This document shows positions 1,515 through 37,359 of a DNA stretch of 40,000 nt, in pieces. The DNA is from Kordiimonas sediminis (GTDB lineage: Bacteria > Pseudomonadota > Alphaproteobacteria > Sphingomonadales > Kordiimonadaceae). The stretch lies in assembly GCF_014656395.1 (NCBI RefSeq), contig NZ_BNCI01000001.1:925893-965892 (forward strand). Direction: 5' to 3'. The notes under the pieces were generated by a model, which ran no database searches, was not told the origin of the DNA, and was given only the letters and a program-made list of their open reading frames with translations. Positions within the stretch are counted from its first letter, which is position 1. Every line of letters starts with the position of its first letter. Made by a program: the position numbers and the translations under genes.

Positions 1515-1632
1515 ACGCACGATCGTGATTCAACAAACAATGACCGGCATGATATAGTCGTGCCGGTTCGGTGTCCTGGTAGAGGGGAAAACCGGGAAGG
1601 GCTAACAGGGGATAACACCCCAGGAGTATAGA

Positions 1633-14010: not shown

Positions 14011-15138
14011 ATGAAAAATAGACAAGATCAGATAATTGGCAGCTCCCCCGCTTTCCTTGACCTGCTGGACCAGATTTCCCGTGCGGCACCGCTGGATCGC
14101 CCTATGTTGGTGATCGGGGAACGCGGCACGGGTAAGGAGCTGATTGCGGCCCGACTGCATTTTCTTTCCAATCGGTGGAATGAAAATTATCAGAAGCTGA
14201 ACTGTGCGGCATTGCCTGACAGTCTGCTGGAAAGTGAACTGTTCGGGTATGAACCCGGTGCGTTCACCGGTGCCACCAAGCGGCGTAAGGGCCGGTTTGA
14301 AGTGTCTGACAAAGGCAGTCTGTTTCTGGATGAAATTGGCACCATGAGCATGAGTGCGCAGGAAAAACTCCTGCGGGTTATTGAATACGGGGAATTTGAG
14401 CGGGTAGGCGGGTCTGAAACCCAGACGGTGGATGTCCGTGTTATTGGGGCCACCAATATTGATCTGCCGTCCGCTGCGGCGGTGGGTGCGTTTCGTCACG
14501 ACCTTCTGGACAGGCTTGCGTTTGATGTTATCACCGTCCCTCCCTTGCGGGAAAGGAAAGAGGATATCCCGGTGCTTGCAGAAACCTTTGGTATGCAGAT
14601 GGCGCGGGAACAGGAGTGGCTTCAATTCCCCGGATATACCAAAGGGGCGATGGATGCGATGCTTGATTATCACTGGCCTGGGAATGTGCGTGAACTGAAG
14701 AATGTGGTGGAACGGGCTGTGTACCGCGCCTGGGACGGCGAAGAGCCAATTGATGACATTGTTTTCGACCCGTTTGCCAGCCCGTTTCGGCCCAAAGGTG
14801 TTGCCGCACAGCCCTTGTCGTCGCCGCCAGGGTACCGGCTGCCTGTTTCTAAAGGCGATACAGTAGCAGTGCCGCCAGCACCAGAAGCAGCCAGTACCGG
14901 CAAGGGGCACGGTAACGGTCTTGGCCAGTCTTTATCGCAGTTACCTGAAGGAGACTTCTGTCTGCGGTCAATGACAGCAGAGTATGAACGGACGTTGCTC
15001 GGAGACGTGTTAAAACGTAATCGCTATAACCAGCGGCAGGCAGCGAAAGAAGCAGGTCTCACATATGACCAATTTCGCCATGCCTTGAAAAAGCATGATA
15101 TTTTATCGGTTGACCCCGAAGCACAACCAGATGTCTAG
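14011..15138 (+). CDS. pspF: Sigma-54-dependent transcriptional activator PspF (no receiver domain)
   Basis: AAA+ domain starts at the N-terminus. Walker A GERGTGKE, GAFTGA motif (YEPGAFTGA), C-terminal HTH (NQRQAAKEAGLTYDQFRHALKKH). Divergent from pspABC. Confidence 0.9.
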   Translation: MKNRQDQIIGSSPAFLDLLDQISRAAPLDRPMLVIGERGTGKELIAARLHFLSNRWNENYQKLNCAALPDSLLESELFGYEPGAFTGATKRRKGRFEVSDKGSLFLDEIGTMSMSAQEKLLRVIEYGEFERVGGSETQTVDVRVIGATNIDLPSAAAVGAFRHDLLDRLAFDVITVPPLRERKEDIPVLAETFGMQMAREQEWLQFPGYTKGAMDAMLDYHWPGNVRELKNVVERAVYRAWDGEEPIDDIVFDPFASPFRPKGVAAQPLSSPPGYRLPVSKGDTVAVPPAPEAASTGKGHGNGLGQSLSQLPEGDFCLRSMTAEYERTLLGDVLKRNRYNQRQAAKEAGLTYDQFRHALKKHDILSVDPEAQPDV

Positions 15139-21414: not shown

Positions 21415-23217
21415 TTAGACTTCGCGCATTTTCAGGGCTGCGATGAAGGCATTGTGGGGGATTTCCACCTTACCGTACATGCGCATTTTGGCTTTACCCT
21501 TCTTCTGCTTTTCCAAAAGCTTCTTCTTACGCGTTACGTCACCACCATAACATTTAGCTGTAACATCCTTACGCATGGCAGAAATTGTCTCACGTGCGAC
21601 CACCTTGCCGCCGATGGCAGCCTGAATAGGAATTTTAAAGAGCTGTCTTGGGATCAGGTCTTTAAGCCGCTCACACAGTGCCCGGCCGCGGCTTTCTGCC
21701 TGTGAACGGTGTACCAGCATTGATAACGCATCGACGGGCTCAGCGTTCACCAGAATAGACAGTTTCACCAGATCAGACTTTTCGTAGCCTGCCAGTTCAT
21801 AGTCAAAGCTCGCATACCCGCGCGAGACAGATTTCAAGCGGTCATAAAAATCATAAACCACTTCGTTGAGAGGCAGTTTATATTTCAGCATGGCACGGTT
21901 GCCGACATAGGTCATATCCTGCTGCACGCCGCGTTTGTCTTCGCACAGTTTCAGAACGGCGCCCAAATGCTCGTCTGGTACCAATATGGTCGAATCGATC
22001 CAAGGTTCTTCGATATAGTTGATTTTCACGACATCAGGCATGTCGGCCGGGTTGTGTAATTCAAGAAGCGTACCGTCTGTCATGTGAATTTTGTAAATCA
22101 CGCTTGGGCTTGTTGTGATCAGTTCCAGATCAAACTCGCGGCTCAGACGTTCCTGAATAATCTCTAGGTGCAACATGCCAAGGAAGCCGCAGCGGAAACC
22201 AAACCCAAGAGCTGCTGAGTTCTCTACTTCGAATTCAAAGCTGGCATCATTGAGACGCAGTTTGGGCAGAGCGTCCCGCAAAACTTCATATTCAGAGGTG
22301 TCGGCAGGGAACAGACCACAGAAAACAACAGACTGACTTGGCTTAAAGCCCGGTAGGGCCTGGGCACAAGGACGTTTCACTTCTGTGATGGTGTCACCAA
22401 CCTGTGTGTCGGCTACTTCCTTGATCGAGGCTGTGATAAACCCAACTTCACCTGGCCCCAATGACGGCACCATTACACCTTTAGGCGTGAACACGCCAAC
22501 ACGGTCAATCTGATGGGTGCTGTCTGCGGCCATCATTTTCACTTGCTGGCCTTTTGTCAGCGTACCATCAATGATGCGAACAAGAACAACAACACCCAGA
22601 TAACTGTCATACCAGCTGTCGACGAGCATGGCTTTCAGCGGCGCATTTGGGTCGCCCTCTGGTGCGGGCAGTCTGGTTACAATTGCTTCCAGTGTTTCCT
22701 TGATGCCGATACCAGACTTGGCAGAACAGGCAATTGCCTCTGATGCATCAATGCCGATTACATCCTCGATCTGGGTGCGGACACGTTCAGGGTCTGCGGC
22801 GGGCAGGTCAATTTTATTCAGAACCGGTACAATTTCGTGGTTATTGTCAATGGCCTGATAGACGTTTGCCAGTGTTTGTGCTTCTACACCCTGTGAGGCA
22901 TCCACAACAAGTAGCGACCCTTCACAGGCAGCAAGGCAGCGGCTGACTTCGTAGGCAAAATCAACGTGTCCGGGGGTGTCCATCAGGTTCAGCACATAAC
23001 TTTGACCGTCATCGGCCTTATACTCCAGGCGCACCGTCTGGGCCTTGATGGTGATACCGCGTTCCCGCTCAATATCCATGCTGTCAAGAACCTGGCTTTT
23101 CATTTCCCGGTCAGACAGGGCACCGGTGTTTTGAATAAGCCGGTCAGCCAGTGTGGATTTGCCGTGGTCAATGTGGGCAATGATGGAAAAGTTTCTAATA
23201 TTTTTTTGGTCGGTCAT
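21415..23217 (-). CDS. lepA: Elongation factor 4 (LepA)
   Basis: [34 protein letters not shown] GTPase motifs. 600 aa with the typical LepA C-terminus. Confidence 0.97.
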
Positions 23218-23291
23218 AGCCGTAATTTCAAACTACATAATAGGGTTATGATAGGGGTGCCGTACTGTTGGTTCGGCTGATTTGTTCGGTG

Positions 23292-24284
23292 CTAAAGCGG
23301 CAATACCCGGTCAGGTGGCCTGTGGCCATCGGTGTAGGCGCGAATATTGATCAACACTTTTTCACCCATGGCTTTTCTGGCCTCAATCGTTGCAGAGCCC
23401 ATGTGCGGCAAAAGAACAACATTATCCAGTTCCAGTAGTTTTGGATTAATGGTTGGTTCTTCTTCGAACACATCAAGCCCGGCCCCGGCCAGACGTCCAA
23501 CCTCAATGAGGTCGGCAAGTGCTTCTTCGTCGATAATTTCACCCCGTGCCGTATTGATGATAATAGCGTGGGGCTGCATTTTCTTTAGCCGGTCCCGGTT
23601 CAGAAGGTGATGGGTTTCTGCCGTCAGGGGACAGTTTATGGATACAAAGTCCATCCGCGACAGCATCTGGTCCAGATCATCCCAGTATGTTGCCTCCAGT
23701 TCGGCTTCTACTTTGGCCGGCAGTCGTGACCGGTTGTGATAATGAACCGAGATGTTGAAAGCCTTTGCCCGGCGGGCGATAGACTGGCCAATACGGCCCA
23801 TGCCTACAATCCCCAGACGTTTGCCCTGAATGCGGTGCCCCATCAGGAATGTCGGAGTCCAGCCGGTCCACTCGCCGCCTCGCAGGATTTTCTCACCCTC
23901 GAAAATACGGCGCGGAACTGACAGCAACAGTGCCATCGCAAGATCGGCGGTGTCTTCGGTCAGAACGCCCGGTGTATTGGTGACGGTTATGTTCTTTTCC
24001 CGTGCGGTTTTCAGGTCAATATGGTCAACGCCCGCGCCAAAGTTGGCGATCAGTTTCAACTGCTCTCCGGCCTCGGCAAGAACATCGGCATCCAGTGTAT
24101 CTGTAACCGTTGGCACCAGCACGTCAGCGATCTTCACAGCTGCGACCATTTCTTCTTTTGTGAAGGGCTCGTCTTTAAGATTAAGGGTCACATTAAAAAG
24201 TTCAGCCATGCGGGTTTCAACATCATCCGGCAGCTTGCGGGTGACGATGACTTTCGGCCGATTTGAAATTCCTGTTTGACTCAT
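23292..24284 (-). CDS. D-isomer-specific 2-hydroxyacid dehydrogenase (glyoxylate/hydroxypyruvate reductase-like)
   Basis: NAD-binding GIVGMGRIGQSIARR. Catalytic-region blocks INTARG and LPHMGSAT. 330 aa. Confidence 0.9.
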   Translation of the reverse strand: MSQTGISNRPKVIVTRKLPDDVETRMAELFNVTLNLKDEPFTKEEMVAAVKIADVLVPTVTDTLDADVLAEAGEQLKLIANFGAGVDHIDLKTAREKNITVTNTPGVLTEDTADLAMALLLSVPRRIFEGEKILRGGEWTGWTPTFLMGHRIQGKRLGIVGMGRIGQSIARRAKAFNISVHYHNRSRLPAKVEAELEATYWDDLDQMLSRMDFVSINCPLTAETHHLLNRDRLKKMQPHAIIINTARGEIIDEEALADLIEVGRLAGAGLDVFEEEPTINPKLLELDNVVLLPHMGSATIEARKAMGEKVLINIRAYTDGHRPPDRVLPL

Positions 24285-24412
24285 GCTTTAAAATAACCTT
24301 TTCTGACGGGCAATGATAGGTCGCCTGCCCATATTTATCCGCTTCTCTAGCAGATGGGCGCGTCTGTTTCAAATGTCTAATGATACGGATATCTGCGGGA
24401 TTGTAAGCGACA

Positions 24413-24904
24413 ATGCTGAAATCACTCACAACAATATTTACACTTTTGCTTTTTAGCTCCTCTGGGCTGTTGGCACAGGAGATCGGCGCCAGCGGAAATC
24501 CGATACCGCGCTTCGTGTCCCTGAAGGCAGAAAAAGCCTACATGCGAACAGGGCCTGGGCGTCAGTTTCCTATTGAATGGACATATAAGCGTAGCGGCTT
24601 ACCCCTTGAAGTTGTTGGGGAAAACGGGCCGTGGCGGAACGTACGAGATCACGAAGGTTCGACGGGCTGGATGCATCTGCGGTTACTGTCAAGTGCCCGT
24701 ACCGCCATGATTCGTGGTGGTGCTGCCCGGCTGTATGCAGACCCGAATCCAACAGAGCGGGTGACGATTCTTGCCGATGAAGGAGTTATCGGTGACATAT
24801 TGGAATGCGAAGCAAATTGGTGTGAACTGGAAATCGCAGGTGAACACGGCTGGATACAGCGGGGGCGTTTGTGGGGCGTGTACCCCGGTGAAGTGATTGA
24901 CTAG
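24413..24904 (+). CDS. Bacterial SH3 domain protein (secreted)
   Basis: Signal peptide, then PRFVSLKAEKAYMRTGPGRQFPIEWTYKRSGLPLEVVGENGPWRNVRDHEGSTGWMH and a second SH3-like half. Confidence 0.7.
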   Translation: MLKSLTTIFTLLLFSSSGLLAQEIGASGNPIPRFVSLKAEKAYMRTGPGRQFPIEWTYKRSGLPLEVVGENGPWRNVRDHEGSTGWMHLRLLSSARTAMIRGGAARLYADPNPTERVTILADEGVIGDILECEANWCELEIAGEHGWIQRGRLWGVYPGEVID

Positions 24905-24908
24905 TAGC

Positions 24909-25850
24909 ATGACAGATATTCCCGGTTTTGAGTTTATCCCGTATCAGAGCGCGTACCGTTCCGATTTCGCCCGGCTGAACATTGATTGGCTGGAAGAGTT
25001 TTTTGTCGTCGAACCCATTGATGAATTGGTGCTTCATAACCCGGAGGACTATATCCTCAACAAAGGGGGCGATATTTTCTTCGCGCTTAAAGACGGCCAA
25101 GCAGTTGGCACTGTTGCGATGAAGGCGACAGACCGTACAGGAGTGTTTGAACTTACCAAGCTTGGTGTGGACAAAAGCTGTCAGGGTGCCGGCGTTGGCG
25201 AGGCTCTGTGCCAGATGGTGTTCGACCGGTTTATAGAGGTCGGCGGCGCGCTTCTGTTTTTGGAGACCAATACCAAACTGCAACCGGCTATTCGGCTTTA
25301 TAAACGGTTGGACTTCGTCGAAAAACCTCTTCCTTCTGACACCCCTTACGAGCGGGCAAACTATTATATGGAATGGCAGGGTGCGGGGCTTACAATCCAT
25401 TCGGCAACATCGCGCCGGGATATTGCCATTGTGCGGGACTTCTTTCAGGAATACGCCCACTGGCTGGAGGCGGAAACGGGCCTGTCTCTGGCTTTTCAAG
25501 GGTTTGAGGAGGAAATGGCCGGGTTTCCAAGCAAGTATGAAACCCTGTTGCTGGCAAAATATAACAGCAGGCCTGTCGGGGCGGTTGCTCTATTGAAGCA
25601 TGATGATGCTGTGTGCGAAATGAAACGCTTGTTTGTGACACCGTCCGGGTGGGGCAAGTCTGTTGGCAAGCATCTTAGTGTTGCGGTGATGGAAGAAGCC
25701 CGCCAGCGGGGGTTCACTGTGATGTTGCTGGATAGCCTGCGCCGCCTTGAGAATGCGGTGGCGTTATACCGCGCGCTTGGGTTCGAGGAAACGGACCCCT
25801 ATAACGAAAACCCGGAAGCCGATGTGGTCTATATGAAGCGGGATTTATAG
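24909..25850 (+). CDS. Tandem GNAT-domain N-acetyltransferase
   Basis: ATG 24909 (listed start 24897 is TTG). Two acetyl-CoA-binding-like blocks: QGAGVGEAL and WGKSVGKHL. Confidence 0.8.
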   Translation: MTDIPGFEFIPYQSAYRSDFARLNIDWLEEFFVVEPIDELVLHNPEDYILNKGGDIFFALKDGQAVGTVAMKATDRTGVFELTKLGVDKSCQGAGVGEALCQMVFDRFIEVGGALLFLETNTKLQPAIRLYKRLDFVEKPLPSDTPYERANYYMEWQGAGLTIHSATSRRDIAIVRDFFQEYAHWLEAETGLSLAFQGFEEEMAGFPSKYETLLLAKYNSRPVGAVALLKHDDAVCEMKRLFVTPSGWGKSVGKHLSVAVMEEARQRGFTVMLLDSLRRLENAVALYRALGFEETDPYNENPEADVVYMKRDL

Positions 25851-25886
25851 GAACAGTACCGGCAGCGTCTGTAGACACAAAAAAGC

Positions 25887-25903
25887 CCCCGCTAGTGCAG
25901 GGG
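25887..25903. repeat. Left copy of target-site duplication CCCCGCTAGTGCAGGGG
   Basis: Identical 17-mer at 35687-35703. The unambiguous core is GCTAGTGCAGGGG; the limits are blurred by adjacent C/G runs. Confidence 0.75.
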
Positions 25904-25932
25904 GGGGTATAGTGATATCTCACAAAAAATAA
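25904..25932. repeat. Left terminal inverted repeat
   Basis: GGGGTATAGTGATATCTCACAAAAAATAA. The reverse complement of 35658-35686 is GGGGTATAGTGATATCTTACAAAAAATAA (28/29 identical). Confidence 0.85.
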
Positions 25933-25956
25933 TTCAACGTGCATCACTGTAAGATT

Positions 25957-25989
25957 AAAGCCGCTTCTCTGAAATGGAGGCGGCTTTTT
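25957..25989 (-). terminator. Hairpin/terminator downstream of the Cas1-membrane protein operon
   Basis: AAAGCCGCTTC...GGAGGCGGCTTT stem (with G-U pairs) flanked by A/T runs, ~30 nt after the stop at 26017. Confidence 0.45.
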
Positions 25990-26016
25990 CTAGTCGGAAC
26001 GAATTAGATAACAGCT

Positions 26017-26691
26017 TTACTTACGATTTGCGAACGCAGACTGTTGCAGTACTGAGCGATATTCTTTTGCCAGTTTTTCCTTCATTTCTGCCTTCAGCCG
26101 TTTTGTGATTAACCTTTTGTATTTCCACCTTTTGAGCCAGTTTATCCCGTACCCACGCAAGAACATTGAAGCTTCACCTCTTGCGGCATTTAGCAGATCA
26201 CTTGGAGCACAATTCACTTCTAGTAATTGTTCTCGTACATGCCATGCCTCCATTTTATGTGGATTGGGGGGAGAGCAAAGGTGGTTCACTATTCTTAGTC
26301 GCCATTTTACGCTGTCGTCAAAAGCAATGACAGCGGCCCTTAGTGCATCAAGTTCAGCCTTGGCAGCATTCAATTTACTTATAAATGGTTTTAAACCGCT
26401 AATAATTTCCTCAAGCAATTTAACAAGTTCATTTTCAAGCTGTTGATCATAAGGTTTGCCTGATGTGTATAGACTGACAAGTTCATCCCCCAACTTTTTC
26501 GACATAGAGATCGATAGTATTGTCTTATCTTTAACATCAGTGTCCAAATACTCAAAAACCGCTGTTGCCAAATCAATTGACGCTTGGCCTCGGTTTTTAA
26601 ATAACCAGTAGTCTTTAATCCAAACAATCCAGATTAATATTATACCTCCAATTATTGAGGCTATAATTGCGCCTATCGTTAAGCCTTCCAT
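26017..26691 (-). CDS. Hypothetical membrane-anchored coiled-coil protein (element cargo)
   Basis: Best start is ATG 26691 (GAGGG 5 nt upstream), giving MEGLTIGAIIASIIGGIILIWIVWI (TM). The listed start 26733 is TTG and overlaps cas1. AT-rich. No family recognised. Confidence 0.5.
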   Translation of the reverse strand: MEGLTIGAIIASIIGGIILIWIVWIKDYWLFKNRGQASIDLATAVFEYLDTDVKDKTILSISMSKKLGDELVSLYTSGKPYDQQLENELVKLLEEIISGLKPFISKLNAAKAELDALRAAVIAFDDSVKWRLRIVNHLCSPPNPHKMEAWHVREQLLEVNCAPSDLLNAARGEASMFLRGYGINWLKRWKYKRLITKRLKAEMKEKLAKEYRSVLQQSAFANRK

Positions 26692-26719
26692 TTGCACCCT
26701 CATCCCAATTAGATCAAGT

Positions 26720-27811
26720 TTAACTCTGAGCAATCAATCTTGCCAACTCAGGTCCAAGTCTGCAAACACCATCTTCCTGCAAGATAAAGTCTGCCCCTGA
26801 GAAGGTTTCTTCCTGAACCAGCTTTAATATAGCCCTGTCAGCTATTGGCCGCTTGGGTTCCATCAGGTCGTAAATAAACGAATGCCGTTCAGCCACCATC
26901 CGGTCGTGCATGATACCAATTGAGGGGTCATAGCCATCTGCGATTGCTTCGATCCTGACACTACTTTCCAGCATCGTATAAGCATAATTCAGCATGGCAT
27001 TCACAGGATGTGTTGCATTGCGGTTTGACGGGGTTGTGAGTACGGCTAACGATGACCGTGAGAAGAAACGCTTCCATTCATCAGGGATAGGATATTTCCC
27101 CTGAGCCTTCCATTTAATATCTAGTGCGCGCCAAGCGAAAAAATAGCCCTGCGCGACCTGTCCTTCATACGCGAGAAGCTTAGATATATCCTGCGGCGGT
27201 TCTTCCTTGAGAAGCTTCAAGGTCGAATGTGCCTGATCAATGGCCTTGTCCCGCGAATGGGAAGCGGGGAGAATGTTTTCGAGATTGTAGAGCGTTTCCT
27301 TGATCTTGCCTTCAATGAGGGGTTTTGCAAACTTCAGCCTGTTTTCCTCGTTGGCCCGTGTCGCAATCTGCCACGTTACTTTCTGACGGTCAGCGGCATA
27401 GCCTGATGCACAGTGAACGGAAGCAATACGTCCATCCCACCGGAGCCTGATAAGGTCAACCTTCTGTTCGCTGAGCCAATCAAGGGCATCAAGGGTGATA
27501 TTGCCAGACCCGTCAACGAGGACAATGCGCGACGGTAAGGACAAATCTCCTTTGAAGAACTGGAACTCCCTGACCTGTTGAGGGAAGTGGGTAAAGCCAC
27601 CACGGACTATCAAGGTTCCTCTATCCACATGTAGGGAAACACCGTTCCCGGTCAGCACTAGGGGGGTCTGTTGTCTCTGCCTTCTTTTGCGTTTGGGGAT
27701 GCCAGCTTCACAGGCGGCAATCCAGTATTGGCAGCGTTCAGACCATTCATCAATCTGAGCTTCAGAGTCGCTTTTTTGAGATAACTGGTTCAATATGCCC
27801 CCTACATTCAA
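26720..27811 (-). CDS. cas1: Cas1 homologue (putative casposase)
   Basis: N-terminal beta domain (LVLTGNGVSLHVDRGTLIVRGG; RIVLVDGSGNITLDALDWL). Helical domain with E216 (LLAYEGQVAQGYF), NAMLNYAYTML, H302 (GIMHD), D315 (IYDLMEPKRPIAD). Start uncertain: TTG 27811, TTG 27793 or GTG 27658. Confidence 0.85.
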   Translation of the reverse strand: MNVGGILNQLSQKSDSEAQIDEWSERCQYWIAACEAGIPKRKRRQRQQTPLVLTGNGVSLHVDRGTLIVRGGFTHFPQQVREFQFFKGDLSLPSRIVLVDGSGNITLDALDWLSEQKVDLIRLRWDGRIASVHCASGYAADRQKVTWQIATRANEENRLKFAKPLIEGKIKETLYNLENILPASHSRDKAIDQAHSTLKLLKEEPPQDISKLLAYEGQVAQGYFFAWRALDIKWKAQGKYPIPDEWKRFFSRSSLAVLTTPSNRNATHPVNAMLNYAYTMLESSVRIEAIADGYDPSIGIMHDRMVAERHSFIYDLMEPKRPIADRAILKLVQEETFSGADFILQEDGVCRLGPELARLIAQS

Positions 27812-27845
27812 ATACTAATAATATCATATTGGATTCTAGCAAAAG

Positions 27846-28487
27846 ATGCAGATTAAGCCACGGAAAATATGGGAAAAAGGCACTGATTTAAATAAGGCTT
27901 GGCTGGAATATGCAACTGAAAATGAGCGTCAGAAGTATCTGGAATTAAATAACCATAAAATGGAATTTGGTAACGATATTGGTCGTAATATTCAGTTAGT
28001 TGGCAACCTTCTTAATAGGCCAAATCAAATTGAGAATTTAAAAGATGAATTACGCAATTCCCTAATTCAGAAATTGAAGAAAGGTGATTTACTTGCATTT
28101 GGGTATTCGATTTATCCCACTCTTGCGGGTGTGGCATCCCGAATAGAGAATGAATTCTGGATGCTGGCTACATGCAAATGGGAAAATGATGAAGCCCATA
28201 GCCGCTTTAAAGCATACCACCGAATTAAAATTATAAATCCAGACCTATTTCCAGATTTGGATTTAATTCCTGAAATTGGCCGACCATCCAAAGCGGCTAT
28301 TAGGGAAAAAGCAATATTGAGATGTATTGATAAAATTCCTGAATTTGAATTATTAACACATAAAGAAAAAGCCGAATTAATTCGTGCGGAAATAAAAGAA
28401 GAAAATCCAGACATAGACCCTTATGGTCCAGGGTATGGGGATGACGTTATTAAAAAGCAGGTAAATAAAATTCTGAAATCAATTTAA
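27846..28487 (+). CDS. Hypothetical protein (element cargo, AT-rich)
   Basis: 213-aa ORF from ATG 27846, divergent from cas1 with only a 34-nt gap. Contains an IGRPSKAAIREKAI segment. No family recognised. Confidence 0.5.
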   Translation: MQIKPRKIWEKGTDLNKAWLEYATENERQKYLELNNHKMEFGNDIGRNIQLVGNLLNRPNQIENLKDELRNSLIQKLKKGDLLAFGYSIYPTLAGVASRIENEFWMLATCKWENDEAHSRFKAYHRIKIINPDLFPDLDLIPEIGRPSKAAIREKAILRCIDKIPEFELLTHKEKAELIRAEIKEENPDIDPYGPGYGDDVIKKQVNKILKSI

Positions 28488-28643
28488 TTGAATTAATTAA
28501 TTTTAATTGGAATTAAGATCAGGAAATCATTTTCAAATAAGTAATTAGAATCAAATAGTTTTTCCCTTTATCCCGACTCCACAGCAACGCAAATTCGCGC
28601 AACGCTTCCTTCAAGTGACGAATCATTTTGAAAGGACGTTAGC

Positions 28644-29222
28644 GTGTCTAAGAAACGCGATTACAAAGCAGAATACAGGAGACGCATTGAGCGTGGCTTA
28701 GCCAGAGGGTTAAGCCGGTCTCAGGCCAGAGGCCACCCCAAAGCTGGGGAGCGTGGCATCACCTCGGGCGTAACAAAACCCACAAGCACCCCGGAGCTTG
28801 AAACAGCCCTGATGCATTTACGCGATGGGCAAACCCAAAAAGATGCTGCCAACAAGGCTGGGGTCTCCACTGACAAGTTCCGGCGGTTTCTTTACGGTAA
28901 TAAGTTGGCTACCCACCAAGGTCGTAAATGGATACTCACAGATGACAGACCAAGACGGGTGGCGGCAATTACAGATGGCCGCATTAAGGCTGTGACTGTC
29001 CCGAACTATTCGGAAGCTGAAAAAGCTGGGTCATTTTACCATGCTGTCAGCAAATTCATTAGTACCAATCAACCAGCCTACCTTCTTCCTTTTCTTGAGG
29101 ATGGTGTCAACGACATTAAGGGCAATTTTATTCCCTTTGAAACTAACCCCAATGAACTCCACCGCATCGCGTCGATGGACACCCCAGACTTTGCTGAAAT
29201 TTATCAAATTATTTCCAATTAA
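28644..29222 (+). CDS. HTH DNA-binding protein with strongly basic N-terminus
   Basis: GTG 28644 is preceded by AAAGGA. N-terminus YKAEYRRRIERGLARGLSRSQARGHPKAGE. Putative HTH QKDAANKAGVSTDKFRRFLYG. First gene of the HTH-HNH-polB cluster. Confidence 0.6.
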   Translation: MSKKRDYKAEYRRRIERGLARGLSRSQARGHPKAGERGITSGVTKPTSTPELETALMHLRDGQTQKDAANKAGVSTDKFRRFLYGNKLATHQGRKWILTDDRPRRVAAITDGRIKAVTVPNYSEAEKAGSFYHAVSKFISTNQPAYLLPFLEDGVNDIKGNFIPFETNPNELHRIASMDTPDFAEIYQIISN

Positions 29223-29233
29223 GGACTTTACCC

Positions 29234-29596
29234 ATGACCAAATACAAACCTGATGCTGAAGACCGCAGAGAACAAAGAATTAGACGACTAGGCTTTGATG
29301 ATCCCATGTGCGTTATCTGCGGAGAAGATTATGTTCTCTGCCTAGAGAAGCACCATGTAGCGGGGCGGAAGTATGATGATACAGAGGTTCCCGTCTGCTG
29401 CAACTGTCACCGCAAGCTTAGTGATAACCAGCTTGATTATCCTGACAGCAACCCCAATCAGGACCGTAACCTTCTGACTATCGGATATTTCCTGATGGGC
29501 CTCTCTGATCTATTTAAACTGCTTGCCGAGAAACTTATGGAGTTTGGCAATCACCTGATCGTCAATGCACACAGTCAGGAGCAGATTGATGAATAG
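29234..29596 (+). CDS. HNH endonuclease
   Basis: CVICG...LEKHHV...VPVCCNCHRKLS (CxxC / HH / CxxCH arrangement). The stop overlaps the polB start. Confidence 0.8.
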   Translation: MTKYKPDAEDRREQRIRRLGFDDPMCVICGEDYVLCLEKHHVAGRKYDDTEVPVCCNCHRKLSDNQLDYPDSNPNQDRNLLTIGYFLMGLSDLFKLLAEKLMEFGNHLIVNAHSQEQIDE

Positions 29597-32294
29597 TCAC
29601 GATATTCAGGAGATTGCAGTTCGTGCCTATACGGAGACACCGGACAGGCAACCCCTTGGCACCAAACCCCGAACGCGAGAGCAACGACCATCTGCCTACT
29701 CCCTCATCTTTGACTGTGAAACAACGGTTGATGCAGCACAGTCACTCAAGGTCGGCTTTTATCAAATCAGGAACAAAACAAGGCTGGCTGAGGAAGGACT
29801 ATTTTATGCGGCAGAGGCGTTAAGCTGCCGTGAAGTTGATCTTCTGGAAGCCTATGCAGAAAGGCATAGCCTACCCCTCAAAACCATTGAGGAGTTCAGA
29901 ACGCGGGTTTTCCTCAAGCATGCCTATTTCCGCAGGGCTTGTGTCGTGGGCTTCAACCTGCCTTTTGATATCTCCCGCATTGCCCTTGGCCACGGTGCCG
30001 CCAGAGGATCGTTCCGGGGTGGCTTTACGTTTAAGCTTTCTGAATACAAAAGTGATCCCTTTGTCCGGGTCAAGCATCTGAGTGCCAGAGCCGCCCTGAT
30101 GGATTTTGCTAGACCCGCCAAGCAGGAAACCACCCGCGGCATGCGGAAGAAAGGTCAAAAGACGCCAGCCTTCCGGGGCTATTTCACCGACCTGAAAACC
30201 TTGGCCGCAGCTCTCACGAGCCGGTCCTTCAGCCTTGATACGCTCGGCAAATATTTAGGCGTCAAAACTGGGAAAATGGAAACCGCAGAACACGGCCAGG
30301 AAATCACTACTGACTATCTCGACTATGCCCGGACAGACGTTCAGACAACATGGGAATGTTACGAGAAGCTGTTAGATATGTATGCAGCGCACAATCTGGA
30401 AACCCCAGCCCATAAAATCCTCAGTGAAGCGAGCCTTGGCAAAGCCTATTTGCAGCTTATGAATATCAAGCCGCTTTTGGCCTCAAACCCCGACTTGGAC
30501 AGGTCCATCTTCGGCACCATTATGTCGAGCTATTACGGGGGCCGAGCCGAGATCAGGATAAGGAAGGAAATCCGGCAGGTTCTCTATGCTGACTTCAAAT
30601 CCATGTATCCAACGGTTAGTGCCCTGATGGGGCTTTGGGCCTTTGTGACCGGGGATGACCTGACTTGGAAAACGTCAACCGACGAAACAAGAAACTTCCT
30701 AAAGACTGTCATCCTTGATGACCTCAAAACAAGAGAGACATGGAAGAAGCTGACAACCCTTGTTCGGGTCAAGCCGGCTGATGATATTTATCCGGTCCGG
30801 GCCAAATACAATAGCCGCGTTCACACCATTGGCTTGAACAAGTTAAGCACAGACCATTCCTTGTGGATGACCCTTGCTGACTGTATTGCCTCGAAAATCC
30901 TTTCTGGCAAAACCCCGGAGATTATTGAGGCCATCAGCTTTGAGCCGGGACAGCCACAACAGGATATGGAGCCGATATGCCTGTTTGGGTCAAATGAGTT
31001 TGCGGTTGATCCATACAGAGATGATGTCTTCACCAAACTGATTGATTTGAGGGACAGGGCCAAGGCTGACAGAAACCCTCTAGAGAAGGCCATCAAGATT
31101 GTCGCCAATTCCACTGGCTACGGCATCTTCATTGAAATTAACCGGGATGACGCCCCAAAGCCCGAACCCGTTAAGGTGTATGATCAGTTTGGCAGCGCAA
31201 GCCTTCAGGACATGAAAGCAATTGAGGAACCCGGCAAATATTTTCATCCGCTTATGGGGACGCTGATCACGGGAGCCGCACGGCTAATGCTGGCCCTAGC
31301 GGAACAGCTAACGCTCAATGAAGGACTTGGTTGGGTATTCTGTGACACTGACAGCATTGCTATGGCCAAGCCAAAGACGATGGCACAGGATGCATTTATC
31401 ACCAAAGCCGAAAGGGTCATCAAATGGTTTGAAAGCCTGAATCCCTACCAGAAGCCCGGATCAATCCTGCAAATGGAAGATACCAACTTTGATAAGGTGA
31501 CAGGAAAACACCTACCTCTTTACTGTCTCGCTATCTCAGCCAAACGCTATGCCCTGTTTAATCGGGACGGTAAAGGCAACCCTGTTCTCAGGAAAGCATC
31601 AGCCCACGGACTAGGGCACTTGAGGCCCCCATACCGCAATGAGGACACTTCAGACGCTGTTCCAGCCCCAACAGTCCCTTTAGGTGAGATTGGGGTGCAA
31701 CGCTGGCAGCATGACCTATGGTACAAGATTATTGAAGCGCATCTGTCAGGCCATCCCAATCAGGTGGCTCTCAATTGGCACCCGACTTTCGACAAGCCCG
31801 CTGTTAGCCGCTACGGAGCCACAAGCCCCCACATGCTTAAATGGATGGACCACTGGAATGCAGGACGGGAATACCCGCAGCAGGTAAGGCCCTTTGGCTT
31901 TATGGTATCCTTCTCAGCCAAGACCGGACCGTTTGCACCACCCCCAGAGGTTAGTCTTGTTGATCCTTCCAAGCGGGGCCGTCCCACAAAGGCTGAGACA
32001 CCCAAGCCGATTGCTCCTTTTGCCAGTGACCACAATGAAGCTGTTGCCAATGCCTTTGACCGCATAAGTGGGGAAGCGGTTGAACAATGCCAGCTTAAAA
32101 CCTACCGCGAAGCCCTGTGCCAGTATCACCTATCAACAGAGGATAAGTTTGATAATGGTGATTTCTGCGACTTCGGGGAGACGACACGACGGCATATCAC
32201 TGCAACCTCAATCAGGCTCGTCGGCAAGGAAGCAAACAAGGTGGGAGAGAGTGGGGAACTGCATCCATTAGCGAGAACTGCGGAGTTTTTCTAA
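29589..32294 (+). CDS. polB: Family B DNA polymerase (casposon-type; protein-primed-like layout)
   Basis: AGGAG 29577-29581 precedes ATG 29589 (ATG 29565 is an alternative). Motifs: ExoI FDCET, ExoII NLPFD, ExoIII YARTD, motif A DFKSMYPT, motif B KIVANSTGYG, motif C FCDTDS, KxY-like SAKRYAL. Confidence 0.9.
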   Translation: MNSHDIQEIAVRAYTETPDRQPLGTKPRTREQRPSAYSLIFDCETTVDAAQSLKVGFYQIRNKTRLAEEGLFYAAEALSCREVDLLEAYAERHSLPLKTIEEFRTRVFLKHAYFRRACVVGFNLPFDISRIALGHGAARGSFRGGFTFKLSEYKSDPFVRVKHLSARAALMDFARPAKQETTRGMRKKGQKTPAFRGYFTDLKTLAAALTSRSFSLDTLGKYLGVKTGKMETAEHGQEITTDYLDYARTDVQTTWECYEKLLDMYAAHNLETPAHKILSEASLGKAYLQLMNIKPLLASNPDLDRSIFGTIMSSYYGGRAEIRIRKEIRQVLYADFKSMYPTVSALMGLWAFVTGDDLTWKTSTDETRNFLKTVILDDLKTRETWKKLTTLVRVKPADDIYPVRAKYNSRVHTIGLNKLSTDHSLWMTLADCIASKILSGKTPEIIEAISFEPGQPQQDMEPICLFGSNEFAVDPYRDDVFTKLIDLRDRAKADRNPLEKAIKIVANSTGYGIFIEINRDDAPKPEPVKVYDQFGSASLQDMKAIEEPGKYFHPLMGTLITGAARLMLALAEQLTLNEGLGWVFCDTDSIAMAKPKTMAQDAFITKAERVIKWFESLNPYQKPGSILQMEDTNFDKVTGKHLPLYCLAISAKRYALFNRDGKGNPVLRKASAHGLGHLRPPYRNEDTSDAVPAPTVPLGEIGVQRWQHDLWYKIIEAHLSGHPNQVALNWHPTFDKPAVSRYGATSPHMLKWMDHWNAGREYPQQVRPFGFMVSFSAKTGPFAPPPEVSLVDPSKRGRPTKAETPKPIAPFASDHNEAVANAFDRISGEAVEQCQLKTYREALCQYHLSTEDKFDNGDFCDFGETTRRHITATSIRLVGKEANKVGESGELHPLARTAEFF

Positions 32295-32387
32295 CTCAGC
32301 TTTGGTCCTTCTATGACGTTTTCTGGATGGAGGTTTATACCTAATGCTACATACTGTTGTATTGGTTCTCTGTTAGCAAATAAATCC

Positions 32388-35138
32388 TTAGGGTTTTTCA
32401 ATCAATTTAATATCTTCTGTCGTTAATCCGTACAGCTCATAAACCATTTTGTCGATTTCACAATCAGTCTGATCAATCTCACTTTTAATATCTAGCACTC
32501 TAGCCTTTTCCTTTTCAAAATACTCCATCCATTCAGACTTTTGAGAAAGCGATAGCTTTGCAGGCTTTATAGACTTTTCAAGTTCCGCTATAAAATCGAA
32601 GAAAGACAATTCGTACCAGATTTCTAGCTTCTTGGACATTCTATCTATTCTGAACTCAGATTTAATCAAACGTCCTAGTTTCTCTCTTGTAGAATTTAAC
32701 ATCTCATTATTTTTTATGATCGAATTTGCTTTATTTACAAATTTTGTCTGTCTTTTTATATCAGTTCTAGGAATGGGATAATTATTTACGTCTTTAATAA
32801 CAGCTTTAGGAAACATGCTGCGATTTCCTTTTACTGCTCTTCTGGAATGGTAAAAACCCATCAAACTAGAATTTAATATGCAAAGCACAAACTTCAACAA
32901 GTAGTCGTTATCCAGAGCAAGAATATTAATAATACTTTTGTTGTTTAAAAATGTGCCCTCAACATATGTAGCTTGTAATAGCTTTGGATATTTCCCAGTT
33001 ATCTCTCGTATTAAAACTCTTGGCCCAGAAAACATAGAAATATCTCGAGGTTGAGATAACCACTTTCCGTATCTTAACCACTTTCCAGACCAGCTTACAT
33101 CATACCTAAGTACATCTTTTCCTTCTAAATATTTAAAAGTATCTTCATCGTATTTATGGTCATAATCATAAATGTGGTCTTTGACGTCTCGGGCAGTTTG
33201 TTTAGGCGTTCCCTTACCTTTCTCGTAAGCCTGCAAGCCAGCTTTTACTTCATAAAAGTTTGATAGTGGCGCATGCGCTTCAATTTTTTTTATTGTCTCT
33301 AACTCTGCACCTGAACTCTGGAGGTCGAAGATATAAGATTCAATTTTCTTCCATTCCTCCTGAGGAGCAGACAAGCATGGTGTTTCCAGTTCTGTAGCCG
33401 AATAGATATTTTTGAAGTTAACTATATTTTTTTTGTTAATTGTGTTTGATGCGCAAAAAATAGCAGCCTCAACATTAGCCCCATCAAATGTATTTCCTAA
33501 TAAATTCAGCACTGTATTTAAAGATACTTTTTCCAAGAGAAATTCTCTGGTCAGCATAGCTGAATCTGTTCCTAAGACAGAATTAGGTACAATATATGAT
33601 AAGTAGCCTTTATCTTTTAATAGAGAAAACCCTAGCTCGATAAAAAGGATGTAGAGATTAATTTTATCCCTCACTAAAGAATAGTTAGCTCCTACATAAT
33701 CCTTAAAATTGTCAAATATATTATCTCTTGACAAAACATATGGAGGATTTCCAACAATTACATCGAATTTACCAGTTTGTATGATTTCGGAGAATTCTGA
33801 GCTCCAATTAAACGCTAAATCTCCGGCAATTTTGTGGTCGTCAATTAGCGAGTTTCCAACTTTGATGTTATCTTCTAAATATGTGAGTTTTTCCTGTCTG
33901 TTAGCTGTTTTAAGCCACAATGATAGCTTCGTTATTTCCACGGATTCGCTATTCAAATCCACTCCATAAATATTATTCGCTAGTATGTGTGTGTCCCAAC
34001 GAAAGAGCGAGATTTGTTCATTCTTCAAATAGGCTAGCTGACTGTTTACCGCTTCACCTTCTTTTTTTAGATAATCAAAAACCTCATTCAAAAATGCCCC
34101 AGAACCACAGGCCGGATCGAGAACCCTTATTTTTGAAAGCGTATTTTTATATGCTTCCCAGAAGTCAATATGTCGCCTAACTTTCTTGGCAATCTGTTGC
34201 CGCTTTGTTTTAAATTCTTGCGTAGTTTTTTTTGTGAAACTTTTGCTTTTAGTATCGACACGGTGAAGATCGAATTCTTCTTCTGTTATCTCAGGTAAGC
34301 TATCCCCGGCGAGTTCTTTCTTCCGGTCATTTAACCAACCACCTACAGCCAGCTCTACAATGTAGCGGGTTATGTATGGAGGAGTATAAAAAACACCGTC
34401 CTTTTTCTTTTTACTTTTTTTCTTGTCTAAAGGTTCTTCTATACCCTCTGCTTTTGCCTTGATCTCTTCAAGGTCGCTAATTGACTGTTCGAAAATATGA
34501 CCAAGAATATTAACGCTTACATCACTCTCAAAATCGTAATCCCCAATCCTCTTGAAGCCCTGACAGAGTTCATCACTAATATTTAGGGTGTCTAGTTCAA
34601 GGGTTTGTTTAAAGAGACCACCATTATATGCAGGAATATTGAGTTCAGAATTGCCTTTATCAATCGCGTGAAACAGGCCTTTAAAATTTTCCCATATCGG
34701 CTGTGGATTATAAGGGTTTTTCGTCGCATAAGCTTGTTTTAAAGTGTCTTTAGGTAATAGCCCTTTGTCTTCTGCAAAAGCGATAAAAAGAACACGATCT
34801 AAGATGGTTTGGGCAAATTGGACTACCTCAATTGGTTCTTGATGAGGATTATCGTCTCCAATTTTTTTGATCAGGTTTGCTCTCAGGTCTTTGTAATCTG
34901 AATATAACTGGTCGGTAATTTCTTTATCAATTTTTTCACTTTCTTTGAGCAAATCATATGTCGTACCCCCCAATAGATTTTTTGCGGAAAGTAATAAAAT
35001 AAAACGCGCATAATCTTTTGGATTGCTTAAGTTGGATAAATCAAAGACCTCATAATCTTTCCGGCCATAACCTACGGCATATAGTCTGAGTTCGCGGTAA
35101 TTGGAGACGCAAACCCATCGTGCACCTTTTGCGTCCAT
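32388..35138 (-). CDS. Type IIG restriction-modification enzyme, large fragment (N6-adenine methyltransferase + specificity domains)
   Basis: Motif I VLDPACGSGAFL, motif IV VGNPPYV, C-terminal tail VYELYGLTTEDIKLIE typical of Eco57I/MmeI-like fused enzymes. AT-rich. Confidence 0.85.
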   Translation of the reverse strand: MDAKGARWVCVSNYRELRLYAVGYGRKDYEVFDLSNLSNPKDYARFILLLSAKNLLGGTTYDLLKESEKIDKEITDQLYSDYKDLRANLIKKIGDDNPHQEPIEVVQFAQTILDRVLFIAFAEDKGLLPKDTLKQAYATKNPYNPQPIWENFKGLFHAIDKGNSELNIPAYNGGLFKQTLELDTLNISDELCQGFKRIGDYDFESDVSVNILGHIFEQSISDLEEIKAKAEGIEEPLDKKKSKKKKDGVFYTPPYITRYIVELAVGGWLNDRKKELAGDSLPEITEEEFDLHRVDTKSKSFTKKTTQEFKTKRQQIAKKVRRHIDFWEAYKNTLSKIRVLDPACGSGAFLNEVFDYLKKEGEAVNSQLAYLKNEQISLFRWDTHILANNIYGVDLNSESVEITKLSLWLKTANRQEKLTYLEDNIKVGNSLIDDHKIAGDLAFNWSSEFSEIIQTGKFDVIVGNPPYVLSRDNIFDNFKDYVGANYSLVRDKINLYILFIELGFSLLKDKGYLSYIVPNSVLGTDSAMLTREFLLEKVSLNTVLNLLGNTFDGANVEAAIFCASNTINKKNIVNFKNIYSATELETPCLSAPQEEWKKIESYIFDLQSSGAELETIKKIEAHAPLSNFYEVKAGLQAYEKGKGTPKQTARDVKDHIYDYDHKYDEDTFKYLEGKDVLRYDVSWSGKWLRYGKWLSQPRDISMFSGPRVLIREITGKYPKLLQATYVEGTFLNNKSIINILALDNDYLLKFVLCILNSSLMGFYHSRRAVKGNRSMFPKAVIKDVNNYPIPRTDIKRQTKFVNKANSIIKNNEMLNSTREKLGRLIKSEFRIDRMSKKLEIWYELSFFDFIAELEKSIKPAKLSLSQKSEWMEYFEKEKARVLDIKSEIDQTDCEIDKMVYELYGLTTEDIKLIEKP

Positions 35139-35153
35139 TGCATATTCCCATGC

Positions 35154-35525
35154 TTATTGGACTGGTGTTTTATAGCGACCCGGCATTATACTATCGAGGT
35201 CTTTTGTCTTGGCACCTTTTAATTCGAATGGTACTTGAATTTTTGTCTCAGTTTCGCTGAACTCCCCTAATGCAACGTCTACATTTCCGCGTCCAACAGG
35301 TTGGTTTTTGGCTACGGTCCAACTATGAGTATCGCTACTTCTTGTATACCCTAAAACCTCAACGAGAATTCGCTGTATGAATACGTCATCGTTCTGAATT
35401 TCACTATCGTATCTTCCAAGTGATAAATTAGTAGCCCACGCCTTAAGTATCTCAGCATGGTTTTCAGGCACTTCATTAATATGTTGTGCGTGTTTCTCAA
35501 CAATTCTTGGATGGAGTAATGCCAT
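35154..35525 (-). CDS. Type IIG enzyme, N-terminal fragment carrying the PD-(D/E)xK nuclease motif
   Basis: GNVDVAL...(19 aa)...PFELKGAK (D...ExK). Ends at TAA 35154-35156, in the same frame as the 32388..35138 ORF. Confidence 0.7.
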   Translation of the reverse strand: MALLHPRIVEKHAQHINEVPENHAEILKAWATNLSLGRYDSEIQNDDVFIQRILVEVLGYTRSSDTHSWTVAKNQPVGRGNVDVALGEFSETETKIQVPFELKGAKTKDLDSIMPGRYKTPVQ

Positions 35526-35657
35526 AAAGAAAATTCAACCAATACTATTGATGGATTTTATTGATTGAACGGTAGCCTACAACATTAATGTTCTCAACTC
35601 TTAATGGATATTATAATTCTAAGACGAAAAGCTCCCCCAACGTTTTAGGAGAGCCAT

Positions 35658-35686
35658 TTATTTTTTGTAAGATATCACTATACCCC
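35658..35686. repeat. Right terminal inverted repeat
   Basis: TTATTTTTTGTAAGATATCACTATACCCC, the inverted partner of 25904-25932. Confidence 0.85.
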
Positions 35687-35703
35687 CCCCGCTAGTGCAG
35701 GGG
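35687..35703. repeat. Right copy of target-site duplication CCCCGCTAGTGCAGGGG
   Basis: Identical to 25887-25903. Confidence 0.75.
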
Positions 35704-35727: not shown

Positions 35728-37359
35728 CTAGCCGAGTTTTTTCGGCGCAGTCGCTTTTACCGAATCGTCAACATGTGATTCGAACTTTTCAAAGTTCGCA
35801 ACAAACAGTCCAGCCAGGTGATCTGCTTTTGCGTCGTATGCATCTTTGTCCGCCCATGTTTCGCGCGGCGTCAGAATTGCAGAATCAACACCGGCGATCG
35901 CTGTTGGTACTTCAAAGCCGAATCGCTCATCAACACGCATGGATACGTCATTCAGGCTACCGTCCAGCGCAGCATGAAGCATCGCGCGGGTCTGCTTGAT
36001 AGGCATCCGGTGTCCTGTGCCGTACTCGCCGCCGGTCCAGCCAGTGTTAACAAGCCAGCATCTTACGTTACCTTCTGCGATTTTCTTGCGCAGCAGGTCA
36101 CCGTAAACAGCAGGGTGGCGCGGCATGAACGGGCCGCCAAAACATGCAGAGAAAGTCGCCTGCGGCTCTTTCACGCCAATCTCGGTACCCGCAACCTTGG
36201 CCGTGTAACCAGACAGGAAGTGATACATTGCCTGTTCCGGAGAAAGGCGGGAGATTGGAGGCAGGACACCAAAGGCATCAGCGGTAAGCATGATGATGTT
36301 TGTTGGCTTGCCGCCGCGGTTTTCCTCGGACGTGTTAGGAATAGACGTCAATGGATAGGCCGCGCGCGTGTTTTCTGCCAAACTATTGTCAAACAGGTCC
36401 AGTTCGCGGGTTGCTTCGTCCATCACCACATTTTCTACAACTGTCCCGAACATGTGGGTCGTTGCATAAATTTCCGGTTCTGCTTCGGCGCTGAGGTTGA
36501 TCAGCTTGGCGTAACAGCCGCCTTCGAAGTTGAAGACACTGTCATCAGACCAGCCGTGCTCGTCATCACCGATCAGGGTACGGCTGCTGTCCGCGGACAG
36601 GGTTGTCTTCCCGGTGCCAGACAGGCCAAAGAAGATCGCTACATCACCGTCCGGGCCGATGTTGGCGGAACAGTGCATTGGCATGACACCCTTTGGTGGC
36701 AGCAGATAATTGAGGATGGAGAAGACAGACTTCTTATTTTCACCGGCATATTCAGTGCCGCCGATAAGAACCAGTCCTTTGGAGAAGTTCACCGCGATAA
36801 TTGTTTCAGAACGGCAACCCATTGTTTCAGGATCAGCGCGGAAACTTGGCAGGTTAATGATTGTGAACTGCGGTGCCATATCCGCCATTTCACCGGCTTC
36901 CGGTTCGATCAGCATAGTCCGGCAAAACAGGCTGTGCCATGCATATTCGCCGACTGTCCGTACCGCAATACGGTGGGTAGGATCGCTACCGCCCCAAAGG
37001 TCCTGAATGAACAGTTCCTTGTCTTTCATATGATCCTGGAAAGCAGTGTAGATACGGTCAAAGTTTTCCGGTGTCATTGGGCGGTTAACATCGCCCCACC
37101 ATACAGTATCTTCAGTGGTTTCATCCCGAACTGTAAATTTGTCATTCGCAGAGCGACCGGTATGCTTGCCTGTTTTTACAACAAGTGGACCGTCTTTTGC
37201 GAGAGAGCCTTCGCCGCGGCGGATGGCTTCTTCATACAGTTGTTCGGTGGTCAAGTTCCAATATTGGTTGCCAGTCTTCGTGATGCCCTGAGCATCCAAG
37301 TCGACTTTACTATGGCGGGAGCCGTATACTTGCACGGTAATTGTCTCCGTTGCTATCAC
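35728..37359 (-). CDS. pckA: Phosphoenolpyruvate carboxykinase (ATP)
   Basis: [14 protein letters not shown], the kinase-1a loop [11 protein letters not shown], and overall PckA length. The start is GTG 37359, or GTG 37335 (GGAGA upstream). Confidence 0.95.

Follow-up and report, generated by a model that had tools for sequence, protein, structure and literature searches.

The 40-kb stretch of the Kordiimonas sediminis chromosome analysed in this study (the window) carries an element of 9,783 bp, at positions 25904-35686, in the intergenic space between the stop codons of two convergent genes, a GNAT gene (24897-25850, + strand) and pckA (35728-37359, - strand). The element is bounded by terminal inverted repeats (TIRs) with a short direct repeat abutting them on the outside, and it encodes a Cas1 homologue, a protein with a helix-turn-helix (HTH), an HNH nuclease, a family-B DNA polymerase (PolB), a type IIG restriction-modification (R-M) gene and two further open reading frames (ORFs), orf238 and orf213 (Table 1). 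The 20 largest flanking ORFs are ordinary genes, such as those of PNPase, amidohydrolase, LepA, 2-hydroxyacid dehydrogenase, PEP carboxykinase and a two-component system. The element is not flagged in public annotation, where the HNH, HTH and orf213 proteins are named 'hypothetical'. The adaptation machinery of CRISPR presumably descends from casposons, and a preliminary description of this DNA had read the locus as a casposon. Our analysis upheld that interpretation at the level of sequence: a Cas1 with its catalytic residues, a family-B polymerase, TIRs and an abutting target-site duplication (TSD) were all found, together with no other recombinase or CRISPR module. The element is very probably a family-3 (bacterial) casposon inserted in the bidirectional intrinsic terminator between the GNAT gene and pckA, and it is apparently intact, with full-length core genes and near-perfect ends.

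The TIRs are 29 nt long, read GGGGTATAGTGATATCT(C/T)ACAAAAAATAA at the left end and inverted at the right, and agree at 28 of 29 positions. The direct repeat CCCCGCTAGTGCAGGGG is identical at 17 of 17 positions, or at 18 of 18 counting the C at 25886/35686, which overlaps the last base of the right TIR. Because the TIR opens with a G-run and the TSD has the form C...G, the border of the duplication slides symmetrically and can be drawn at 17, 15 or 13 bp; the median casposon TSD in the literature is about 15 bp. Both repeats had been reported in the preliminary description, and we reproduced their coordinates and identities. The first 17 nt of the TIR occur at just two sites in the window with 3 mismatches tolerated (0.03 expected by chance), and the exact direct repeat likewise at just two (0.05 expected). 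The first 9 nt of the TIR are common to 70 element ends in other genera, a count that is partly forced by the search anchor. The GC content falls from about 0.52 outside the element to 0.42-0.48 in places within it and to 0.36-0.38 at 32-35 kb. Profile searches found no tyrosine or serine recombinase and no DDE transposase in the element or the window, and no CRISPR-like or tandem repeats, cas2, CRISPR effector genes or tRNA were found within the 40 kb, in agreement with the absences claimed earlier.

The Cas1 ORF matches PF01867 with an E-value of 3.2e-36 and TIGR00287 with 3.4e-32, the latter score being above the equivalog cut-off, and all the CRISPR-subtype Cas1 models score far under their cut-offs on it. 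The catalytic set E216, H302, D315 and E318 is invariant in an alignment with 23 homologues. By sequence the closest solved structure is 6OPM (E 5.5e-24), which we take to be the Methanosarcina mazei casposase, and the best CRISPR Cas1 reaches 5e-13. The homologues end at the same C-terminal place, and the C-terminal HTH of the family-2 type is absent from the window Cas1. The NCBI annotation gives a protein of 274 aa, 'CRISPR-associated protein Cas1', in which about 89 N-terminal residues conserved in homologues are missing; the exact-protein look-up of our ORF was empty because NCBI uses this shorter start. Family-3 Cas1 proteins have an N-terminal extension (residues ~20-48) preceding the region alignable to solved Cas1 structures. 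It contains the invariant residues W23, R26, W30, R41, R43 and R44 in a basic motif similar to PKRKRRERQ, and may be a DNA-binding arm.

PolB, for which NCBI sets the start at 29589 under the name 'DNA polymerase', has PF03175 as its sole Pfam match (35.7 bits, cut-off 25.8) and matches a PHROG DNA polymerase family at 1.7e-14. Its motifs Exo I-III and polymerase motifs A-C were invariant, in 20 and also in 30 homologues, with D50/E52, N131/D135, Y254/D258, D343/Y348, K511/Y519/G520 and D594/T595/D596 as the invariant residues. Sequence searches of the PDB with PolB, as a single sequence and as a 20-sequence profile, gave no significant match. The AlphaFold model built from 30 sequences (pLDDT 86.3, pTM 0.85) found the phi29 polymerase as the top Foldseek match (6.7e-14, target TM 0.51-0.56), followed by Pol alpha, E. 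coli Pol II and archaeal PolBs at 1e-12 to 1e-10, and the family-B fold of the modelled protein is certain. About 220 C-terminal residues of PolB reach past the phi29-like core. The two smaller core proteins are less easily recognised one by one: the HNH protein of the window has no Pfam match at 0.01, nor has the HTH protein, which reaches HTH_29 at E 0.023. In alignment, the HNH family shows an invariant CxxC..HH..CxNCH pattern (C26, C29, H41, C55, C58 and H59 invariant, N57 near-invariant) and PF01844 is matched by 5 of 19 orthologues; several HTH orthologues match HTH_28/29/23, down to 4e-5. The HNH and HTH labels of the preliminary description were thus right at the family level and weak for the window proteins alone, and its Cas1 and polymerase, for which it had asked for profile searches, were both borne out by the profile matches and conserved motifs given above, with the fold match in addition for PolB.

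Table 1. Features of the element and its borders (positions in the window)
Feature	Position	Strand	Size	Evidence or remark
Left TSD copy, CCCCGCTAGTGCAGGGG	25887..25903	.	17 nt	stem-loop of the probable former bidirectional terminator; 17/17 vs right copy
Left TIR, starts GGGGTATAG	25904..25932	+	29 nt	28/29 complementary to 35658-35686
Subterminal hairpin then TTTTT, pointing inward from left end	25957..25990	+		seen in sequence
orf238, element-specific cargo ORF	26017..26733	-		N-terminal hydrophobic segment; overlaps cas1 stop by 14 nt
Cas1 casposase, without extra C-terminal domain	26720..27811	-	363 aa	PF01867, residues 52-360
orf213, accessory ORF divergent from cas1	27846..28487	+		same position in 13/80 loci, 25-37% identity
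Core protein with central HTH	28644..29222	+	192 aa	syntenic in 72/80 loci
HNH nuclease	29234..29596	+	120 aa	PHROG HNH families 1e-4; syntenic in 66/80 loci
Family-B DNA polymerase with 3'-5' exonuclease domain	29565..32294	+	909 aa	PF03175 E 6.2e-9
Type IIG (MmeI/Eco57I-like) R-M, methyltransferase and specificity part	32388..35138	-	916 aa	low GC
N-terminal nuclease part of type IIG gene	35154..35525	-	123 aa	same frame as 916-aa ORF
Terminator-like hairpin, T-rich tail, pointing inward at right end	35630..35655	-		two terminator scans
Right TIR	35658..35686	-	29 nt	repeat comparison
Right TSD copy	35687..35703	.	17 nt	17/17 vs left copy

The relatives were collected by a scan of GTDB species representatives, one genome per species, in which 273 loci were found and 80 were kept. 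Nearly all of the 80 belong to Alphaproteobacteria, namely Hyphomonadaceae, Rhodospirillaceae, Rhodobacterales, Sphingomonadales and Caulobacterales. By tblastn, HTH, HNH and PolB stand beside cas1 in conserved order in 72, 66 and 67 of them, respectively, the remainder being mostly truncated contigs, and cas1 is divergent from HTH-HNH-PolB in 66-72 loci. The closest named Cas1 matches come from Hyphomonas, Henriciella and Citromicrobium. One locus in the genome of Hyphomonas sp. CY54-11-8 (L008) has the same gene order, a Cas1 with 60% identity over 357 aa and a PolB that is orthologous to that of the window, with 51% identity over 904 aa. The family-3 casposon HypCY54-C1 was published from the same genome (PMC4779613), and the link between L008 and HypCY54-C1 is made through this shared genome, not through matched coordinates. 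Because of the orthology and synteny with the CY54-11-8 locus, the element is assigned to family 3 and not to a new lineage, a choice that the preliminary description had left open; bacterial casposons of this family have been known since 2014 (PMC4046053). The family-3 membership is one by orthology rather than by a formal tree.

The published family-3 casposons (HypCY54-C1, HenMar-C1/C2, CitBat-C1 and NitAL212-C1; PMC4046053, PMC4779613) have the same core of Cas1, HTH, HNH and a PolB of about 900 aa. As in the window element, the Cas1 of HenMar-C1 has no extra domains, the TIR of NitAL212-C1 starts with GGGGTAT and the insertions are intergenic; the 9.8 kb of the window element also lie inside the range of its relatives, 7.5-16.4 kb in the 38 elements with both ends delimited. 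On the other hand, the cargo of the window element differs (an interrupted type IIG R-M gene, orf238 and orf213), and Kordiimonadales is a new host order for casposons within the searchable literature, in which Kordiimonas or Kordiimonadales and 'casposon' did not co-occur. Neither a search of plasmids with Cas1 nor one of phages with PolB returned a match, and nothing thus points to a plasmid or a phage as the vehicle. One metagenome-assembled genome (MAG) of Rhodospirillaceae, CBDHFR01, carries four family cas1 copies (L001, L002, L005 and L036). They were rejected as evidence of very recent bursts, the cas1 genes being just 90-97% identical and the elements mosaic; a sequence of about 915 bp with 99% identity near these copies is probably an insertion sequence.

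The reconstructed empty site of the window, AAAAAAGCCCCCGCTAGTGCAGGGGCTTTTC, consists of a hairpin with an A-run on one side and a T-run on the other. Its folding energy is -10.6 kcal/mol (z -4.2), a value reached by none of 200 shuffles. The reconstructed target is written as GACACAAAAAAGCCCCCGCTAGTGCAGGGGCTTTTCTTAATTC, and the expected empty-site junction is AAGCCCCCGCTAGTGCAGGGGCTTTTC. The left TSD copy with the T-run was listed as terminator-like by a terminator scan, and the insertion parts the hairpin of each flanking gene from its T-run. The element itself has a hairpin near each end pointing inward. The left one, which the terminator scanner missed because its loop is 9 nt, could block read-through from the GNAT gene, and the right one could do the same for pckA. 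Inward terminators were found near the ends, 4 left and 6 right, of 38 relatives, compared with 1.4% of internal windows, and the relatives that have them are mostly the closest ones (L001, L003, L007 and L013). Inner replacement terminators were rejected as a rule of the family, since they are present in a minority of the 38 elements.

The targets were compared in 38 elements with both ends, the window element and 37 relatives. Their terminal repeats start with GGGGTATAG, and a minor type, GGGGATAAGG, matches the published HenMar-C1. Direct repeats of 14-17 nt, with no more than 1 mismatch, abut 35 of 39 inverted-repeat pairs, for the selection of which no duplication was required; in the other four pairs, G-run slippage or the minor repeat type shifts the direct repeats. 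Of those 35 pairs, 33 have a repeat that is plainly direct and not inverted, and therefore the palindromes are the duplicated target and not part of the terminal repeat. The duplication opens with C in 35 of the 38 elements and closes with G in 34, with CC and GG outside, and its length is unambiguous in L063 (14 bp) and L049 (15 bp). In 23/38 elements a perfect stem of 5 bp or longer shares its centre with the duplication, compared with 1.9% of 7,400 random host positions. When the DNA was folded, 29/38 elements had a hairpin of at least 6 bp whose centre lay no more than 1 nt from that of the duplication, compared with 11% of 2,218 random host 41-mers, and at four further sites the two centres are 1.5-2 nt apart. 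T-runs like that of the window are present at about 11 of the 38 sites; others resemble repetitive extragenic palindromes (REPs), e.g. ccctCTCCC...GGGAGaggg. A second TIR abuts the shared hairpin in L002 (~3346-3384), L012 (~13082-13174), L026 (~14127-14159) and L049 (~14663-14694), and these are therefore tandem casposons or solo ends re-using the regenerated target.

These results indicate that hairpin targeting would be a property of the casposon family and not an accident of the window site, and the preferred hairpins often look like intrinsic terminators or REPs. Hairpins that are GC-rich and palindromic (5'-cc/C-stem-loop-stem-G/gg-3', the slashes marking the cuts) may be the specific target of family-3 casposases, which would attack symmetrically at the stem base, and we put the chances of such a specificity at about even. 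The palindromic-target rule, which goes beyond the preliminary description, is absent from the searchable literature (the 2017 review PMC5665730 lay outside its scope), which says 'intergenic', and may be previously undescribed. A stop-to-stop ORF test for targets at gene 3' ends was dropped, as it was noisy in GC-rich DNA and mis-assigned the pckA side of the window. Around the site, gene order differs among Kordiimonadales: in three others (L081, L083 and L084) it runs lepA, 2-hydroxyacid dehydrogenase, SH3, GNAT, (MarR), NMO, PNPase; the window has PNPase and NMO about 22 kb off on the other side (228-3027 vs 21415-25850) and pckA after GNAT, so that the casposon sits at a synteny breakpoint.

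By analogy with archaeal casposases and Cas1-Cas2, the Cas1 homologue would bind both ends, with their 3' termini ...TATACCCC-OH. The casposase would then join these 3' ends to the two target strands at the hairpin base, with a stagger of about 14-17 bp and the flanking 5'-cc/C...G/gg-3', and gap filling or repair would duplicate the palindrome. The family-B polymerase of the element would copy the element or fill gaps, and the HNH nuclease and the HTH protein might help in the processing of ends and in the recognition of DNA.

The type IIG R-M gene, orf238 and orf213 are passenger genes. The 916-aa ORF matches Eco57I (E 2.1e-40), N6_Mtase, MmeI_Mtase and TaqI_C, and it matches the PADLOC model REase_MTase_IIG at E 2.2e-126 with the match beginning at profile position 126. 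The 123-aa ORF upstream is parted from it by a single in-frame TAA (35154-35156, minus strand), and residues 41-563 of the read-through protein align in one stretch to profile positions 45-534. From this alignment and the shared frame, the two ORFs make up a single type IIG gene interrupted by a nonsense codon, and an orphan methylase could be what remains. The N-terminal nuclease part shows a D...ELK motif. The AT-rich cargo mentioned in the preliminary description is this interrupted gene, in the region of lowest GC given above. Neither orf238 nor orf213 has a family match in Pfam, NCBIfam, PHROGs or PADLOC; orf238 also has no tblastn match in the 80 related loci, and its exact sequence is absent from the public protein collection searched.

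Several points weigh against the reading of the element as a mobile family-3 casposon that prefers hairpins. An empty site was not found in other Kordiimonadales via the flanking GNAT gene. The closest GNAT orthologues (Temperatibacter, K. gwangyangensis and K. aestuarii) are about 50% identical and are followed by MarR/NMO/PNPase, not pckA; as GNAT does not adjoin pckA in those relatives, they have no orthologous empty site. Metagenome scans for the reconstructed empty site and for the TIR of the element gave 0 matches and no second copy. The restriction gene of the cargo is broken, so there has been some decay since acquisition. The published ends of HenMar-C1 fit an inverted palindrome better than a direct one; for this element the 2014 supplement gives a duplication of 1 nt and a repeat of 37 nt in which a palindrome lies (PMC4046053), whereas in the window the palindrome can be shown to be the duplicated target. 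Survival of harmless insertions could account for part of the hairpin preference. The Pfam match and the top fold match of PolB lean to the protein-primed (phi29) type, and Pol alpha and Pol II score nearly as well in the fold search, whereas the PolBs of family 3 are called an RNA-primed type that branches from the family-2 PolBs (PMC4046053, PMC4779613). No primase or terminal protein was recognised. Finally, the reaction steps proposed above are borrowed from the archaeal families 1 and 2, and no biochemistry of family-3 casposases was found in the searchable literature.

The first three of these points could mean that the element descends from a casposon and no longer transposes, being either an immobile relic or an island that was domesticated and is retained for the sake of its cargo or polymerase. 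Neither an empty site nor a second copy was found, the element is single in the window, and the type IIG cargo has a nonsense codon. We regard this as possible and rather unlikely. The TSD is still perfect and the TIRs differ at one position; Cas1, HNH, HTH and PolB are full-length compared with their homologues and have all their catalytic residues. The relatives, moreover, occupy different sites, occur in several copies per genome and stand in tandem, signs of mobility at the family level by which the family is active by implication. The claim of the preliminary description that the element is intact therefore held for the core genes and failed for the restriction gene of the cargo.

The association with hairpins, in turn, could be the outcome of selection after insertion by a largely non-specific casposase, with insertions surviving where terminators and REP-like hairpins offer the safe havens they typically are. 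A T-run at just about 11 of the 38 sites is in keeping with this, as are the 5 sites without a hairpin within 2 nt of the centre (L049, L063, L067 and L071, with L044 weak and interrupted). This explanation is improbable in our judgement, because selection leaves the base-pair registration unexplained: the centres of duplication and hairpin fall within 1 nt of each other in 29/38 elements, the cuts lie at the conserved cc/C and G/gg in about 90% of them, and tandem elements re-use the regenerated hairpin.

The archaeal casposons of family 2, from Aciduliprofundum boonei and Methanosarcina mazei (PMC5137440, PMC6614799, PMC6977970), share with the window element a Cas1-family integrase, HNH and HTH accessory genes and a duplication about 14-15 bp long. 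In both families the target is used again by tandem insertions, and the A. boonei target, a palindrome with a CC motif at the attack site, can be likened to that of the window family. On the other hand, the window Cas1 has no C-terminal HTH, the hosts are bacterial, and family 2 targets the 3' ends of tRNA genes whereas the window family targets free-standing GC-rich hairpins or terminators.

The protein-primed type has relatives in the primer-independent PolBs of pipolins, and PF03175, the sole Pfam match of the window PolB, is a protein-primed family. Pipolins are also integrated bacterial elements with their own divergent family-B polymerase and with defence cargo such as R-M, which is typical of them (PMC11551731; see also PMC5695915). 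The element might thus be another self-replicating island, pipolin-like or with a different recombinase, in which Cas1 is a mere passenger. This is very improbable: pipolins have tyrosine recombinases and direct att repeats, often at tRNA genes, whereas no tyrosine or serine recombinase or DDE transposase was found here, the ends are inverted repeats with a short duplication, and Cas1 is the most conserved partner of HTH-HNH-PolB across the 80 loci.

The machinery of CRISPR adaptation is the more distant comparison. Cas1-Cas2 has the same Cas1 fold and E/H/D/E active site, and its staggered attacks around a short, often palindromic sequence duplicate the repeat, as those of a casposase would duplicate the TSD; unlike it, the window has no Cas2, leader or array, and the insert is a 9.8-kb element with defined ends instead of a spacer of about 30 bp. 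Although the NCBI name and the TIGR00287 score of the window Cas1 would suit a remnant of a CRISPR-Cas adaptation module, such an origin is scarcely credible, with no array, cas2 or effector genes in 40 kb, subtype-specific Cas1 models far under their cut-offs, 6OPM (presumably a casposase) as the best solved relative, and the gene lying inside a TIR-bounded element beside PolB.

To our knowledge, casposase biochemistry is limited to families 1 and 2, both archaeal, and what has been described of the bacterial family 3 comes from genome comparison. With its full-length core genes, near-perfect ends, reconstructable target and a named marine species as host, the Kordiimonas element is therefore a practical choice for the first biochemical work on a bacterial casposase, and with at least 273 related loci in species representatives the family is far larger than the handful in the literature. 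In E. coli, the type I-E repeat consists of a GC hairpin with ATAA after it, and presumably resembles the junction of the target hairpin with the minor repeat type. The origin of CRISPR repeats, from casposon terminal repeats or from the duplicated target, was left open by a 2019 review (PMC6452270), and the duplicated GC-rich palindromes bear on this question. If true, the hairpin specificity would be a natural counterpart of the palindromic CRISPR repeat duplicated by Cas1, and would favour the descent of the CRISPR repeat from the duplicated casposon target (PMC6452270); the Kordiimonas element, with perfect ends and a 31-bp terminator target, would then be a ready substrate set. The element is a new member of the known casposon family 3, in a new host order and with an ordinary defence-type cargo. 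It is of value chiefly as a clean substrate for bacterial casposase biochemistry and as an entry point to the palindromic-target rule that may hold across the family.

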